Both the position numbers and the translations under genes were made by a program. A DNA stretch of 64,000 nucleotides from a virus (lineage: Duplodnaviria > Heunggongvirae > Uroviricota > Caudoviricetes): the IMG/VR virus record IMGVR_UViG_2622736468_000003, one strand, 5' to 3'. Under the pieces are notes generated by a model. The model was not told where the DNA came from and made no database searches. It saw nothing but the letters and a program-made list of their open reading frames with translations. This document shows, piece after piece, positions 12,776-61,479 of this stretch; the stretch's first letter is position 1, and each line of letters starts with the position of its first letter.

Positions 12776-13020
12776 ATTCATTACGATATGGGAATTCCCA
12801 TATCGGGTAAAAACGGTTTGCGGTAAAGCGAGAGTTAAGCAGAATTGCTGCGGGTGCTTGAGGCTGTCTGCCTCGGGCATGCCACCGTAAGGCAGACAGA
12901 GAAAAGCCCCAGTTAACATTACGCGTCCTGCAAGACGCCTAACATTAATCTGAGGCCAATTTCATGCTAGACACATGTAGGTTAGCCTCTTACGCGCCGA
13001 AAGGCAAGGAGAAGCAGGCT

Positions 13021-13176
13021 ATGAAGCAGCAAAAGGCGATGTTAGTCGCCCTGATCGTCATCTGTATTACCGTCGTAGTGACGGCACTGGTAACGAGGAA
13101 AGACCTCTGCGAGGTACGAATCCGAACCGGTCAGACGGAGGTTGCTGTCTTCACAGCTTACAAACCTGAGGAGTAA
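13021..13176 (+). CDS. hok: Hok/Gef-family type I toxin
   Basis: MKQQKAMLVALIVICITVVVTALVTRKDLCEVRIRTGQTEVAVFTAYKPEE; in-frame upstream extension from 12964 (mok-like). Confidence 0.8.
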   Translation: MKQQKAMLVALIVICITVVVTALVTRKDLCEVRIRTGQTEVAVFTAYKPEE

Positions 13177-13246
13177 GAGACCAGGCGAGGGAGAAATCCC
13201 TCGCCACCTCTGATGTGTCAGGCATCCTCAACGCACCCGCACTTAA

Positions 13247-14800: not shown

Positions 14801-15145
14801 TTTTTTGTTCCGTTATTAATGTATAACACATAGTATTACATTGCGTAGGGATCTGCAATGCCATCAGTTTGACAACGTCGCGTATCCGGGATTATATTCA
14901 TCGCACGCCAGCAAAATCTGGCGTCGGGATTAGGAACCCCGGATAGAAACCGCGACAGAGACACGCCGCGAGCGTGTTTTTTATTGTCGTATGCACACGC
15001 ACATCTGAATTATGGTGGGGCGTATAGGGGAGCTGAAAAGCTCGCCGGTTGGTTTCCCGGTAGTTCCTAACCCTGTACGTCTCGCCACCCGATGATTAGG
15101 AACCTGACGGTGGTGATAGTTTAGAAACCACTCGAGGGCGTCATT

Positions 15146-18782: not shown

Positions 18783-19267
18783 GTATCCGTTCAACGGGAA
18801 TGTTACATACCTCACAATTAAGTCAGTTGAATGTTGTCTGCCCGGATGAGAATTTGTTAGAAAAAACTGCATGGTGAATCCCCCTGAGCGGAGGGGCGAC
18901 TGGTGACGGTATAATCTCTGATTATCAAAACGAGAATGACGCGGGTTTAGTGGCACCGGGCTGAACTCACCGGGAGGCACCCGGCACCATGCAATGGCAC
19001 ATAGCGCCACTCTCCAGCCCCTCTCCGGAGGGGCTTTCTTATGGACAAAAAAGCCCGCGCTGGGAGACGCGGGCGGCAAGGAATAAACAATGAAACGTGA
19101 AGTAATATTTCAGCTGGCGAATAATACCCCATAGTAATCACTCTGCGCAACTGCGCGACCTTTTTCGAATTGCGGGCTGTAGTCTCCCTTCTGCCATTGT
19201 CCTGTAACTTCCGGACTTCAGCCCGCTCCTTATTTTACTCACAATATTATCCCGGCCGGGAGGATTC

Positions 19268-20885: not shown

Positions 20886-21212
20886 ATGACTAAAAATACT
20901 CGTTTTTCCCCCGAAGTCCGTCAACGGGCAGTCCGTATGGTTCTGGAAAGTCAGAGCGAATATGACTCACAATGGGCGACAATTTGTTCCATTGCTCCAA
21001 AGATTGGCTGTACGCCGGAGACTCTGCGTGTCTGGGTTCGCCAGCATGAGCGGGATACCGGGGGCGGTGATGGAGGGCTCACCACCGCTGAACGTCAGCG
21101 TCTGAAAGAGCTGGAGCGTGAAAATCGTGAACTGCGCCGCAGTAACGATATCCTTCGCCAGGCTTCCGCTTATTTTGCGAAGGCGGAGTTCGACCGCCTC
21201 TGGAAAAAATGA
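20886..21212 (+). CDS. IS629 OrfA
   Basis: 108-aa HTH/leucine-zipper ORF typical of IS3-family orfA. Confidence 0.8.
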
Positions 21213-22099
21213 TGCCACTGCTGGATAAGCTGCGTGAGCAGTACGGGGTCGGACCGCTATGCAGCGAACTGCATATTGCCCCGTCAACGTATTACCACTG
21301 TCAGCAACAGCGACATCATCCGGATAAACGCAGTGCCCGTGCGCAGCGCGATGACTGGCTGAAGAAAGAGATACAGCGCGTATACGATGAAAATCACAAG
21401 GTATACGGTGTGCGTAAAGTCTGGCGTCAGTTGTTACGGGAAGGTATCAGAGTGGCCAGATGCACTGTGGCACGTCTCATGGCGGTTATGGGACTTGCCG
21501 GTGTTCTCCGGGGTAAAAAGGTCCGTACGACCATCAGCCGGAAAGCCGTTGCCGCAGGCGACCGCGTAAACCGTCAGTTCGTGGCAGAACGACCTGACCA
21601 GCTGTGGGTGGCTGATTTTACTTACGTCAGCACATGGCAGGGCTTCGTCTATGTGGCGTTCATCATTGATGTGTTTGCCGGATACATCGTGGGGTGGCGG
21701 GTCTCATCGTCCATGGAAACGACATTCGTGCTGGATGCACTGGAGCAGGCGTTATGGGCCCGTCGACCGTCCGGCACGGTCCATCACAGTGATAAAGGTT
21801 CTCAGTATGTATCGCTGGCCTACACACAGCGGCTTAAGGAAGCCGGATTACTGGCATCAACAGGAAGTACAGGCGACTCGTATGACAACGCGATGGCGGA
21901 GAGCATCAATGGTCTTTACAAAGCGGAGGTAATACACCGTAAGAGCTGGAAAAACCGGACAGAAGTGGAGCTGGCCACACTCACGTGGGTGGACTGGTAT
22001 AACAATCGACGATTGCTGGAAAGGCTGGGCCATACTCCTCCGGCAGAAGCAGAAAAAGCTTATTATGCTTCCATCGGAAACGATGATCTGGCAGCCTGA
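21209..22099 (+). CDS. IS629 OrfB (DDE transposase)
   Basis: 296 aa; overlaps orfA as in IS3-family elements. Confidence 0.8.
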
Positions 22100-44138: not shown

Positions 44139-44876
44139 ATGAAAAGTATCACAAAATTTCTTGTGTGCGCAACTCTGGGCTTAGGTGGATTAACTGCACA
44201 GGCACATGCTGCATCTGGTGATAGTACCGTATCCCTTGGATTCGCTCACCTTCAGCTATCCGGGCTGAATAATTTTGTTAAGGATTTAAGTCTTCATAAC
44301 CTTGATACCTTTAACAATTTTGTGAATGAAAACTATTTCAATTCACCTGGAGAATATGACGATGCGTTTGTCCGGGGCCATGATGGTAAAGAGAAAAGTC
44401 CCTTGGGAATGAACATTAAGTATCGTTATGAGATTACGGATGAGATCGGTGTTATAACCTCTTTTGCATGGGCTCGATCCATGACTAATGCACAGGCATT
44501 CATTGATGTTAAGCCTTCCGATCCATCACGAGAGGTAAAAAAACCGGCAGCTTCAGCGAGAACTGATATCAGGGCTAATTACTGGAGTCTACTATCCGGT
44601 CCTTCGTGGCGGTTTAATGAATACCTCAGTGTGTATTCAATGGCAGGTGTTGCGGTTGCAAAAGTAACTTATGATTTGAAAGTTAACGACAATCTTAATG
44701 GTGGTGTAGGTAGTTTTTCTGAAAGTAACAGCACCAAAAAAACGTCTATTGCATGGTCTGTCGGCGCGCAATTTAACTTCAATGAAAGTGTTACTATGGA
44801 CGTCACTTATGAAAGCTCAGGCTCTGGCGACTGGAAAACTGATGGTTTATTTGCAGGCATTGGCCTGAAATTCTGA
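44139..44876 (+). CDS. Lom/Ail/PagC-family outer-membrane beta-barrel protein
   Basis: signal peptide MKSITKFLVCATLGLGGLTAQAHA; C-terminal ...GLFAGIGLKF; AT-rich upstream region; moron-like. Confidence 0.65.
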   Translation: MKSITKFLVCATLGLGGLTAQAHAASGDSTVSLGFAHLQLSGLNNFVKDLSLHNLDTFNNFVNENYFNSPGEYDDAFVRGHDGKEKSPLGMNIKYRYEITDEIGVITSFAWARSMTNAQAFIDVKPSDPSREVKKPAASARTDIRANYWSLLSGPSWRFNEYLSVYSMAGVAVAKVTYDLKVNDNLNGGVGSFSESNSTKKTSIAWSVGAQFNFNESVTMDVTYESSGSGDWKTDGLFAGIGLKF

Positions 44877-44902
44877 GTAATACCCGACAACATGTCATAA
44901 CC

Positions 44903-44926
44903 CGCTGTGATGGCGGGTTTTTTGTT
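44903..44926 (+). terminator. rho-independent terminator after the lom-like gene
   Basis: CCCGCtgtgatgGCGGG followed by TTTTTT. Confidence 0.65.
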
Positions 44927-45108
44927 GCCCGTGCAGGGCAAAAATCGTAGATTATGCGCGGGTGCCTTTCGGCTGATGGCTGGAAGGTGAACCTGAAGGC
45001 CTGATGTGGAAAGGCCCCGAGTCAAACATTTTGTTTAACCCGAGGCCCTAACCATCATACCTTAAGCAAGTAGAAGGTTAGCGCCTCTCCACTCAGGAGG
45101 CAAGCGCT

Positions 45109-45249
45109 ATGTCGCAAAAATCGCTCATCACCGTCACAATTTGTATGACGGTAATCTTCACCATCTGGATGTTACACGGCTCGTTGTGTGAGTTCCGGCT
45201 GAATTTGTGGGGAGCGGAGTTTGCGGCGTTCTTACAGTGTAAGCAGTAG
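45109..45249 (+). CDS. Hok/Gef-family type I toxin (second copy, 46 aa)
   Basis: GGAGG RBS; MSQKSLITVTICMTVIFTIWMLHGSLCEFRLNLWGAEFAAFLQCKQ (TM segment followed by LCE motif as in HokA/HokE-type peptides). Confidence 0.55.
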   Translation: MSQKSLITVTICMTVIFTIWMLHGSLCEFRLNLWGAEFAAFLQCKQ

Positions 45250-45329
45250 GAAAACCGCGACGGGGACGAAAGTCCCCGTCAACTGGTTGCTGAGGTTCAG
45301 CCGATATGGCACCCGTTTCTGGTGAGAGA

Positions 45330-45707
45330 ATGGACGACAAAATTCTCCGGTATATGCAGCGTGTTGTGAGAAATTCCCGCAACCCTGAATTTATGAATGA
45401 AGTTAAAGACGCCTGCCTTAAAAAGCAGGCGTTTTGCTTTGAGGCACCGGATGGTTTTCTGGTGCTGCGTTCTGTGCTCAGTGACGACGGTATCCCTTAT
45501 GTTCTGGTGTTGCTGGGCGTGTGTACGGGGAGTAACAGCGTTGAGCGTTATCTGCCGGAGGTGAAGACATTAACCCGTCTGGCTGGCGGACGCTGGGCTG
45601 AATTCCATACGGCAAGACGGGGATTTATCCGGCTGGGAAAACGTCTGGGCTTTGAGCGAATGCCGGATGATGAGGATGGCTTCATGGTGTTCAGGATAGC
45701 GGTCTGA
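45330..45707 (+). CDS. hypothetical protein
   Basis: internal ATG of track ORF 45306..45707. Confidence 0.4.
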   Translation: MDDKILRYMQRVVRNSRNPEFMNEVKDACLKKQAFCFEAPDGFLVLRSVLSDDGIPYVLVLLGVCTGSNSVERYLPEVKTLTRLAGGRWAEFHTARRGFIRLGKRLGFERMPDDEDGFMVFRIAV

Positions 45708-60527: not shown

Positions 60528-60776
60528 GATGACCTCCTTTGGCTTTTTTCGAGAAATGCCACCACAAGATGTGGTGCCGGGAGGCTCGAAACGGCCCAAA
60601 AGATACCGCGGACTTATTCCCCTTGCGGGTGTTGTATTCGTCGCCCTCCCGACATTGATCGGGGATGTGACCGCACACTGTGCTATCACTGAATAACAGG
60701 CATAAAAAATCCAACACTGACGGGGTTGGTTTAATCCGCTTTTGGGAGGTTTTCGAGGCCTCGGCGCGGAGTATAG

Positions 60777-61064: not shown

Positions 61065-61479
61065 GATGACCTCCTTATTTGTTTAGTTTATAACCGCCAG
61101 TTAGTAGCTGGCGGTCGGGTGTCAACTGAGCCAAATAAGAAGCTCTGGGCATATTCCCCTTGCGGGTGTTGTATTACGCCTCTCCACCCGACCTTTGTAC
61201 GGATGTAACTATGCCAAATTGCAGGCATAAAAAAGCCGCAAAGCTATCGGGTGCGGAGACCGCTTATTTGTTCAGTGCGATCAGTATGCGATAGCTCTGG
61301 CGGATTTGTCAAATCGTGCAGTAACATCCTTTTCTTCCTTGCCATTTCTCAATGATGACAAAGGGTGGATTCGGATTGGTATTGGGACAAAAGTGAGACA
61401 CACAAAGCTTTGCATCGGCTTACAAAGCTTTGCATGTTTTTCAATGTTGGGACGTGTGAGCGCAGAAATGACGGGCTAT

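Follow-up and report, generated by a model that had tools for sequence, protein, structure and literature searches.

A second hok/sok-type toxin cassette, probably autonomous and without a mok frame, downstream of lom in a 933W-like prophage

Does the short intergenic stretch behind the lom gene of a 933W-like prophage hold a second toxin locus of the Hok family, and, if it does, how might the expression of that toxin be controlled? The question is raised by a 46-codon open reading frame (ORF) in a 64,000-nucleotide stretch of viral DNA (IMG/VR record IMGVR_UViG_2622736468_000003; hereafter "the window"), which the initial annotation had taken for a second type I toxin gene. In this report, we find that the ORF, which we call hok2, is, judged by its sequence, a genuine and intact Hok-family membrane toxin gene. 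Further, we consider it likely (probability about 0.85) that positions 44925-45314 constitute an autonomous hok/sok-type cassette of the "cluster 72" Hok subfamily, carried as a moron after lom in a 933W-like short-tailed lambdoid prophage. The claim of a second Hok-family type I toxin locus is upheld by a passing Pfam score, by seven conserved residues, by an architecture typical of hok mRNAs and by a predicted, convergent promoter and terminator of the Sok type.

The ORF itself is as first described. Its start codon lies 8 nt downstream of a GGAGG Shine-Dalgarno (SD) sequence at 45096-45100, and the translation read from the window agrees exactly with the one claimed.

45109..45249, plus strand: hok2 coding sequence, 46 aa, MSQKSLITVTICMTVIFTIWMLHGSLCEFRLNLWGAEFAAFLQCKQ, assigned from profiles, homologues and dN/dS; the peptide is that of LRP157 / 72_1589.

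The lack of any Hok-family match in profile searches, together with a lack of toxicity on expression, had been named in advance as grounds for dropping the assignment. Pfam PF01848 (HOK_GEF) scores the peptide at 33.2 bits (E 4e-8; gathering cut-off 22 bits), with residues 8-44 aligned to profile positions 6-42 of 42, and thereby places it in the family. The peptide also matches phrog_251 ("MokW-like host killing", moron category) with an E of 2.8e-24. A protein search returned 56 homologous clusters, nearly all of them exactly 46 aa long; every named one is a Hok/Gef protein, and their sources are E. coli, Shigella and Salmonella. The 46-aa subfamily as a whole is kept across E. coli, Shigella, Salmonella, E. 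albertii and Citrobacter. A recent catalogue of Hok peptides (Escalera-Maurer et al., 2026 preprint, bioRxiv 10.1101/2025.08.07.668861) gives M1, C16, T18, L30, C31, E32 and E41 (R1 numbering) as the conserved residues, that is, those kept in >80% of 1,264 peptides. All seven are found in hok2, as M1, C12, T14, L26, C27, E28 and E37, at an offset of -4. The second cysteine of hok2, C44, aligns with Y48 of R1 Hok. Across 32 members of the subfamily, neither C27 nor C44 varies, and the homologue alignment retains the SLCE and AEFAAFLQCK segments along with them. The best-scoring NCBIfam model is that for HokA (NF007290), with which hok2 shares an M-x-Q-K N-terminus and an AAFL-x-C-K C-terminus. 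The score of 38.4 bits, however, falls well short of the 89 bits set as the equivalog cut-off; orthology to HokA was therefore rejected, and hok2 is a member of the Hok family but not a HokA orthologue. The NCBIfam Hok subfamily model (NF007279) yielded 22.7 bits against a cut-off of 73.

The coding sequence bears the marks of selection. The median pairwise dN/dS among 26 intact distinct coding sequences is 0.24, and the comparison with the 933W copy reveals synonymous differences only (dN = 0, dS = 0.295). The ORF is intact at 46 codons in 26 of the 30 distinct copies and has 47 codons in two more, and among the distinct copies a strong SD has been kept 8 nt from the start. Two phage copies, those of Stx2_EH2011 and Stx2_8243, are frameshifted.

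At the peptide level, hok2 is no novelty. It is identical to 72_1589 of cluster 72 (72_1589 / 72_1621; RefSeq WP_000078907.1). According to the preprint, 72_1589 comes from a high-abundance cluster and was cloned as LRP157, and the text names only 19_179, 60_1482 and 69_1540 as non-toxic among 45 constructs (bioRxiv 10.1101/2025.08.07.668861). From this list of exceptions we infer that the LRP157 peptide, which is that of hok2, is toxic to E. coli on overexpression, in agreement with the toxicity that the initial annotation expected; the result applies to the coding sequence with a synthetic SD on a plasmid. The same preprint text reports that hok genes are about four-fold enriched in prophages and that two hok copies occur in 3.5% of hok-carrying phages (bioRxiv 10.1101/2025.08.07.668861). 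The cassette occurs in 933W and Sp5 and in 198 phage records; of 5,426 complete E. coli genomes, 1,750 carry it. In a scan of species-representative genomes with the hok2 alignment, seven loci were found, three of them from assemblies that look contaminated. The description of the gene as "hidden" holds for RefSeq 933W, in whose annotation, as in that of PA28, it is absent; it does not hold for E. coli, where PGAP has annotated a "Hok/Gef family protein" in every genome among the matches listed. In phage records its names are "small toxic polypeptide", "MokW-like host killing" and "host toxic membrane protein". The gene is already known and catalogued. Because some 1,750 genomes carry it already annotated and the identical peptide is reported as toxic in the preprint, its detection here is correct but ordinary.

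The surroundings of the gene are likewise conventional. The preceding gene (44139..44876) encodes a Lom/Ail outer-membrane protein (phrog_108 Lom, E 1e-69). Because a terminator-like hairpin (44899-44919) with a T-run closes lom, hok2 does lie directly past the lom terminator, as was first proposed. Homology to copies in unrelated contexts extends from about 44940 to 45314 (~375 nt, by BLAST), and the whole cassette measures ~390 bp (44925-45314) once a positionally conserved -35 hexamer is included; its boundaries are alike across four unrelated genomic contexts. In 933W, Sp5 and further Sepvirinae, the copy follows lom; P2-like prophages have it at their end, past ogr, and a lambdoid prophage has it between J and the tail-fibre gene. 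Chromosomal islets carry it too, and other copies adjoin dinI or lie beside an L31 paralogue in the O157 urease island. Such sites are typical moron slots, the one after lom included, and the placement that had been termed unusual is a normal one. Escherichia phage Lyz12581Vzw and many Stx2a phages match this region at 99.5% identity, and 933W and VT2-Sakai (Sp5) do so at 92%. A near-identical prophage of E. coli FORC_069 agrees with the window over its late half, coordinate for coordinate: an N4-gp56-type capsid gene is followed by Lom and then by the "Hok/Gef family protein" WP_000078907.1 at 45109..45249. The early region of that prophage also carries a "HokD" gene.

The window holds another hok locus at ~12852-13240 (locus 1, with hok2 in locus 2), comprising an Rfam sok match (12852-13026, 116.9 bits), mok (12964..13176) and hok (13021..13176). 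Locus 1, not hok2, corresponds to hokW-sokW of Sp5, because the published primers show that hokW encodes the 51-aa peptide of this locus, which begins MKQQKAM (PMC8621323). On the same grounds, we rejected the idea that the published work on hokW covers hok2. All experiments of Takada et al. (2021) concern the MKQQKAM gene, and that article makes no mention of a second hok (PMC8621323). The two loci share a phage lineage, a GGGUGC 5' end and a GCACCC 3' end, a TTGCCT/TAACCT Sok promoter, an SD 8-9 nt before the ATG, and membership in phrog_251. They differ in their peptides, which are 33% identical (46 aa in hok2, 51 aa in hokW), and in mok, which locus 2 lacks and which in locus 1 runs for 70 codons in the frame of hok.

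If hok2 is transcribed from a promoter of its own, its RNA would have the following elements, all on the plus strand.

44925..44953, plus strand: putative hok2 mRNA promoter, placed by sequence, by hexamer positions kept in unrelated flanks and by the layout of locus 1.
44960..45314, plus strand: full-length hok2 mRNA (inferred ends), starting with GGGUGCC and ending with GGCACCC (45308-45314).
44960..44972, plus strand: tac element at the mRNA 5' end, partner of fbi in the full-length and of ucb in the truncated form.
45009..45015, plus strand: ucb-like box GAAAGGC, the alternative tac partner, overlapping the GAGG-sequestering stem 45013-45019.
45013..45047, plus strand: leader hairpin that hides GAGG in the mRNA; read from the minus strand, it forms the stem of the predicted Sok2 terminator.
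45079..45109, plus strand: translation-initiation hairpin that buries the hok2 SD and start.
45110..45228, plus strand: long-range closing helix, in which 45110-45124 pairs with 45214-45228.
45253..45288, plus strand: 3' stem-loop with compensatory changes; its minus strand reads as a terminator, and ~25 nt that include fbi follow it.
45301..45314, plus strand: fbi element at the mRNA 3' end, partner of tac; cross-context conservation stops here.

The putative promoter consists of a -35 hexamer TTGCCC (44925-44930), a 17-nt spacer and a -10 hexamer TAGATT (44948-44953), 6 nt from the G at 44960. Among the homologues, the hexamers read TTGCCx or TTGAAA and TAGATT, TAAATT or TAGAAT, and they stay in register in every context. 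A consensus promoter scanner run on the window called neither this promoter nor that of the predicted antisense RNA (Sok2, below); both were placed by homology and conservation, and both are weak in comparison with the consensus. The mRNA ends derive from the start of the Rfam sok model at 44960 and from the end of cross-context homology at 45314.

The predicted fold of this RNA conforms to much of what is known from plasmid R1. The minimum-free-energy (MFE) fold of the full-length molecule (-158 kcal/mol, z = -7.2) joins its 5' and 3' ends, and an RNAalifold consensus on a 30-sequence alignment gives the same structure. In this consensus, 97.9% of the cells over the 30 homologues are paired, and double changes occur at 17 pairs (109 cells); controls with slid 3' partners reached 38-43% paired and at most 24 double-change cells. 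Positions 44960-44966 pair invariantly with 45308-45314, and the helix extends to 44969-44972 with 45301-45304, where compensatory changes are found at all four pairs. The long-range tac/fbi closure of the R1 paradigm is thus present in the predicted fold and accompanied by covariation. As to the alternative pairing, 96.6% of the cells allow tac (44964-44970) to pair with ucb (45009-45015); double changes occur in 18 cells, where the slid controls had at most 1. Changes of both partners are seen at 44969 and at 44970, each time in 9 sequences, and these two tac positions also covary with fbi at 45303-45304. The alignment therefore points to a tac/ucb pairing of the R1 type whose changes are coupled to those of tac/fbi. 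Such coupled covariation of tac was reportedly described by Gultyaev and colleagues in 1997 as a signature of the hok family. A helix of tac with the initiation stem (45081-86) was always pairable, showed zero double changes in the alignment and is uninformative.

The remaining elements concern access to the start site. In the leader hairpin, the pairs of 45013-19 with 45041-47 change from GC to AU in 5 sequences and from CG to UA in 2; the GAGG that it hides (45042-45045) is the homologue of the mok SD. In the initiation hairpin, UAGCGC (45079-84) pairs with GCGCUA (45104-09), which includes the A of the hok2 AUG, and inside it an anti-SD, UCUCC (45086-90), pairs with the SD, GGAGG (45096-45100). 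When 18 distinct versions from the homologues were folded, 17 gave this hairpin an energy of -10.5 to -15.5 kcal/mol; the outlier, at -5.8 kcal/mol, is the S. diarizonae copy. The sequestration of SD and start codon in secondary structure, a further feature of the R1 paradigm, is thus predicted here. The closing helix has 13 pairs and 98.7% of its cells paired, and its changes are mostly absent or one-sided. Five of the nine inner pairs of the 3' stem-loop show compensatory changes. Its role was assigned after the 3' stem-loop of R1 Tr-hok, by which analogy it would probably serve as a barrier to 3' exonucleases and define the truncated, active mRNA. In silico removal of the 3' end has a weak and inconsistent effect on the opening of SD and AUG: for the copy in the window, their accessibility is 0.24 before and 0.27 after removal, and the hairpin stays closed. 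The Sok target is predicted to become more accessible in 24 of 25 scored homologues, with typical values of ~0.2-0.3 before and 0.4-0.55 after.

Opposite the leader lies a predicted antisense gene.

45075..45103, minus strand: predicted Sok2 promoter, from sequence and from conservation in 30 of 30 homologues.
45008..45068, minus strand: predicted Sok2 antisense RNA of ~60 nt, its ends inferred from promoter and hairpin.

The promoter has a -35 hexamer TTGCCT (45103-45098), which varies among the 30 homologues as TTGCCT, TTGCTC, TTGACT or TTTACT, a 17-nt spacer and a -10 hexamer TAACCT (45080-45075). The initial annotation had pointed out that the leaders of the two loci share AGGTTAGC. This 8-mer occurs in the window at 45075-45082 and 12979-12986 and nowhere else, but as a bare repeat it is without statistical meaning and was rejected as such, with at least two matches in 34 of 100 shuffles. 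It is the complement of the Sok2 -10 box TAACCT, and it acquires its meaning by position, because it falls in the antisense (sok) promoter -10 region of both loci, in leaders that are homologous. The corresponding hexamer of hokW-sokW is probably the one that Takada et al. mutated to silence sokW, as identified from primers YO-421 and YO-422 (PMC8621323). The predicted Sok2 RNA comprises a single-stranded 5' tail of ~10-19 nt, a long hairpin and UUUCC; its fold (-31.5 kcal/mol, z = -6.5) has the same shape as Sok of locus 1. The hexamers, their spacing and the hairpin terminator are conserved, and the promoter is homologous to the verified one of sokW. The tail and its target (45050-45068) are the most variable leader stretch among the homologues and differ from locus 1, which fits pair-specific recognition and makes cross-regulation between the two loci unlikely. 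In the Rfam check that had been suggested for this locus, the sok model (RF01794) aligns end to end with 44960-45120 at a local E of 6e-8, but its 41.9 bits lie under the gathering score of 59, and at gathering thresholds only locus 1 is found in the window.

One component of the R1 system is missing.

45054..45065, plus strand: expected mok start site, ATC ATA CCT TAA, 8 nt after GAGG.

In none of the 30 homologues of the hok2 subfamily alignment does an ATG, GTG or TTG occur 3-14 nt after the GAGG. Locus 1, as a positive control, has an ATG 8 nt after GAGG, followed by 70 codons in frame with hok. When all leader ORFs with ATG, GTG or TTG starts were considered in the 30 homologues, no conserved upstream ORF that reaches the hok2 start region was found. 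Some homologues have sporadic leader ORFs in the +1 frame (ATG at +17 or +45, TTG at about +102), which are not conserved and are absent from the copy in the window. A short leader ORF at 45003-45050 is missing in the Salmonella copies, as seen by eye in the alignment. Locus 2 therefore departs from the R1 paradigm in having no mok frame some 8 nt past GAGG that is coupled to hok. In R1, mutations of the mok start codon abolish Hok translation, and translation of mok opens the hok start site (PMC9841398). The absence of mok thus counts against an R1-like translation of hok2 from its native mRNA. We found no statement on this point in the hok literature cited here. The catalogue preprint treats coding sequences only and explicitly leaves mok, sok and mRNA structure aside (bioRxiv 10.1101/2025.08.07.668861); the RNA structure and the mok/sok side described here are outside its analysis.

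By analogy to R1 and to hokW-sokW, a mechanism can be proposed. The full-length hok2 mRNA would be constitutive, stable and inert. Slow trimming of its 3' end to the stem-loop would remove fbi, let tac switch to ucb and thereby expose the leader segment 45008-45068. The unstable, ~60-nt Sok2 would pair with this segment, and the duplex would be destroyed by RNase III. Should the supply of Sok2 stop, through prophage loss, host shut-off or a read-through of the late operon that collides with the convergent Sok2 promoter, the truncated mRNA would be translated. The Hok2 peptide, with a transmembrane helix at about residues 5-23 and a periplasmic tail bearing Cys27 and Cys44, would then enter the inner membrane and collapse the membrane potential. 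The switch from tac/fbi in the inert full-length RNA to tac/ucb in the processed RNA is that of R1, as reviewed by Le Rhun et al. (2022; PMC9841398). For R1, and in part for hokW-sokW, it is known that the Sok/hok duplex decays through RNase III and that killing is post-segregational or set off by induction (PMC9841398, PMC8621323). With R1 hok/mok/sok, locus 2 has in common the pairing of the ends through tac and fbi, the tac/ucb alternative, a GAGG hidden by ucb, the 3' stem-loop, a (predicted) Sok antisense to the leader and two tac positions that covary with both partners. It differs from R1 in a peptide identity of 30%, in the lack of a mok start after GAGG, and in its home in the late region of a phage rather than on a plasmid. 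For the phage, the candidate benefits are addiction, exclusion of other phages or, as for hokW, help with lysis. The "stabilisation module" of the initial annotation is an assumption: among the hok loci of these phages, experiments have characterised only hokW-sokW of Sp5, which on induction promoted the release of phage and whose removal cut that release only by half (PMC8621323).

The missing mok gives rise to the most serious of the rival explanations, namely that the locus has become a translationally silent relic from whose own mRNA no Hok is made, kept by hitch-hiking or for a role at the RNA level, for example with Sok2 or hok RNA counteracting related hok loci as a decoy or in anti-addiction. 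Not one of the 30 homologues has the mok that R1 requires (PMC9841398), the initiation hairpin remains closed even in the predicted truncated fold, and the copies in Stx2_EH2011 and Stx2_8243 are frameshifted; the preprint's authors cite earlier reports that the chromosomal hok loci of K-12 are mostly inactive (bioRxiv 10.1101/2025.08.07.668861). Against this, the coding sequence has been under purifying selection across genera (dN/dS 0.24; dN 0 and dS 0.295 against 933W), both cysteines and all seven catalogue-conserved residues have been retained, and 26 of 30 distinct copies are intact at 46 codons and two more at 47, with the SD at 8 nt. A silent ORF would not be expected to stay intact in E. 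coli, Salmonella and Citrobacter alike, and we regard this explanation as unlikely.

Still less probable, in our judgement, is an orphan toxin that has no working antisense RNA and is restrained by the folding of its mRNA alone, what looks like a Sok2 promoter being kept by its overlap with the SD and hairpin. Since the -35 hexamer overlaps the hok2 SD and the -10 hexamer adjoins the initiation stem, constraint on the sense strand could explain their conservation; TAACCT agrees with TATAAT at three of six positions, the scanner made no call, and the Rfam sok match is sub-threshold. Yet TAACCT also drives the experimentally verified sokW (PMC8621323), the 17-nt spacing is preserved while the length of the sense-side spacer varies, and on the minus strand a hairpin followed by a U-stretch stands in the right place. 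Further, no part of the leader varies more than the presumed target of the Sok tail (45050-45068), as would suit a specificity determinant. The reading of hok2 as a chance ORF in an intergenic spacer, with no gene at all, can appeal to its 46 codons and to its omission from the RefSeq 933W and PA28 records. Above-threshold profiles, occurrence in ~1,750 genomes, a dN/dS well under 1 and the toxicity reported in the preprint refute it; the ORF lies, on the evidence of its sequence, far beyond chance, and we assign this reading a negligible probability.

That hok2 is under selection in spite of the missing mok suggests direct initiation at its own SD, a standby role of GAGG or some other trigger. 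We tentatively propose, as a possibility well short of an even chance, that the 46-aa "cluster 72" cassettes form a mok-independent branch of the hok/sok family, which would have kept the R1-type switch and Sok, would do without the leader ORF, and would rely on GAGG standby or on direct initiation. In the standby version, the unmasked GAGG (45042-45045) might let ribosomes stand by or load, with Sok2 covering the site in a manner likened to the action of IstR-1 on tisB. In the other version, Sok2 would act purely through RNase III decay, and hok2 translation would initiate at its own strong SD. A further trigger, and perhaps the natural one, might be read-through from the Q-dependent late operon, which runs in the direction of hok2 and against the Sok2 promoter.

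The identification of this cassette means that 933W-type Shiga-toxin phages bear two different hok cassettes, of which the reference records of 933W and PA28 omit hok2; the value of the correction for annotation is small. The absence of mok, for its part, is a modest refinement of a well-studied system rather than a new kind of system. When hokW-sokW was deleted, the Sp5 prophage still contained another, uncharacterised Hok toxin, which affects the reading of the published deletion phenotype. Lastly, a subfamily that lacks mok and retains a conserved, covarying switch of the R1 type represents a natural test of the need for leader-peptide coupling in the control of hok.

The hok2 gene, a 46-codon Hok/Gef frame, is not annotated in the RefSeq records of the reference Stx phages 933W (NC_000924.1) and PA28 (NC_041935.1), despite the presence of its sequence, with the reading frame intact, in both.

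NC_000924.1 45491-45881: unannotated hok2 region of 933W

In two Stx2a phages, the frame is shifted, leaving 24 amino acids in Stx2_EH2011 (L021) and 44 in Stx2_8243 (L022); the flanking RNA elements are intact in both. Salmonella enterica contigs (L028-L031) carry tandem pairs of cassettes of the same 46-residue Hok subfamily (cluster 72), spaced by about 490 nt, each cassette having its own tac and fbi ends. Three genome-contig matches (L002, L003 and L005) look like assembly contamination. They comprise an 857-bp contig labelled "Xanthomonas pisi DSM 18956", which is about 99% identical to the hok2 phage region, and an enterobacterial P2-like version of the cassette found in a MAG labelled "Planococcaceae" and an assembly labelled "Vagococcus sp."

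The other hok cassette of the window is of the hokW/HokD type.

12852-13240, plus strand: locus 1

Its Rfam sok match is strong (116.9 bits), and its 70-codon mok lies in the same frame as hok. The locus 1 product ends in VAVFTAYKPEE, unlike the HokW of Sp5 implied by the primers in PMC8621323.

Further structured RNAs in the window were matched in Rfam at gathering thresholds.

14905-15092, plus strand: isrK, adjoining C4 antisense RNA
18841-19046, plus strand: STnc100
21167-21283, plus strand: ALIL pseudoknot
60568-60653 and 61105-61193, minus strand: two copies of sRNA-Xcc1

The ALIL pseudoknot is the IS3-family frameshift signal; thus, an IS element probably resides within the prophage.

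The 3' end of the hok2 mRNA bears on two neighboring features.

45306-45707, plus strand: downstream gene as usually annotated
45258-45281, minus strand: intrinsic-terminator-like hairpin, complement of the hok2 mRNA 3' stem-loop

The usual ATG of the downstream gene (45306-45308) falls within the fbi element. Because the phrog_610 alignment to the gene product begins only at residue 9, the true start is probably the ATG at 45330 (MDDKILRY...). Read on the minus strand, the 3' stem-loop forms a hairpin followed by CGGTTTTCCT, an intrinsic terminator by score. This predicted terminator could block antisense transcription arriving from the downstream side.
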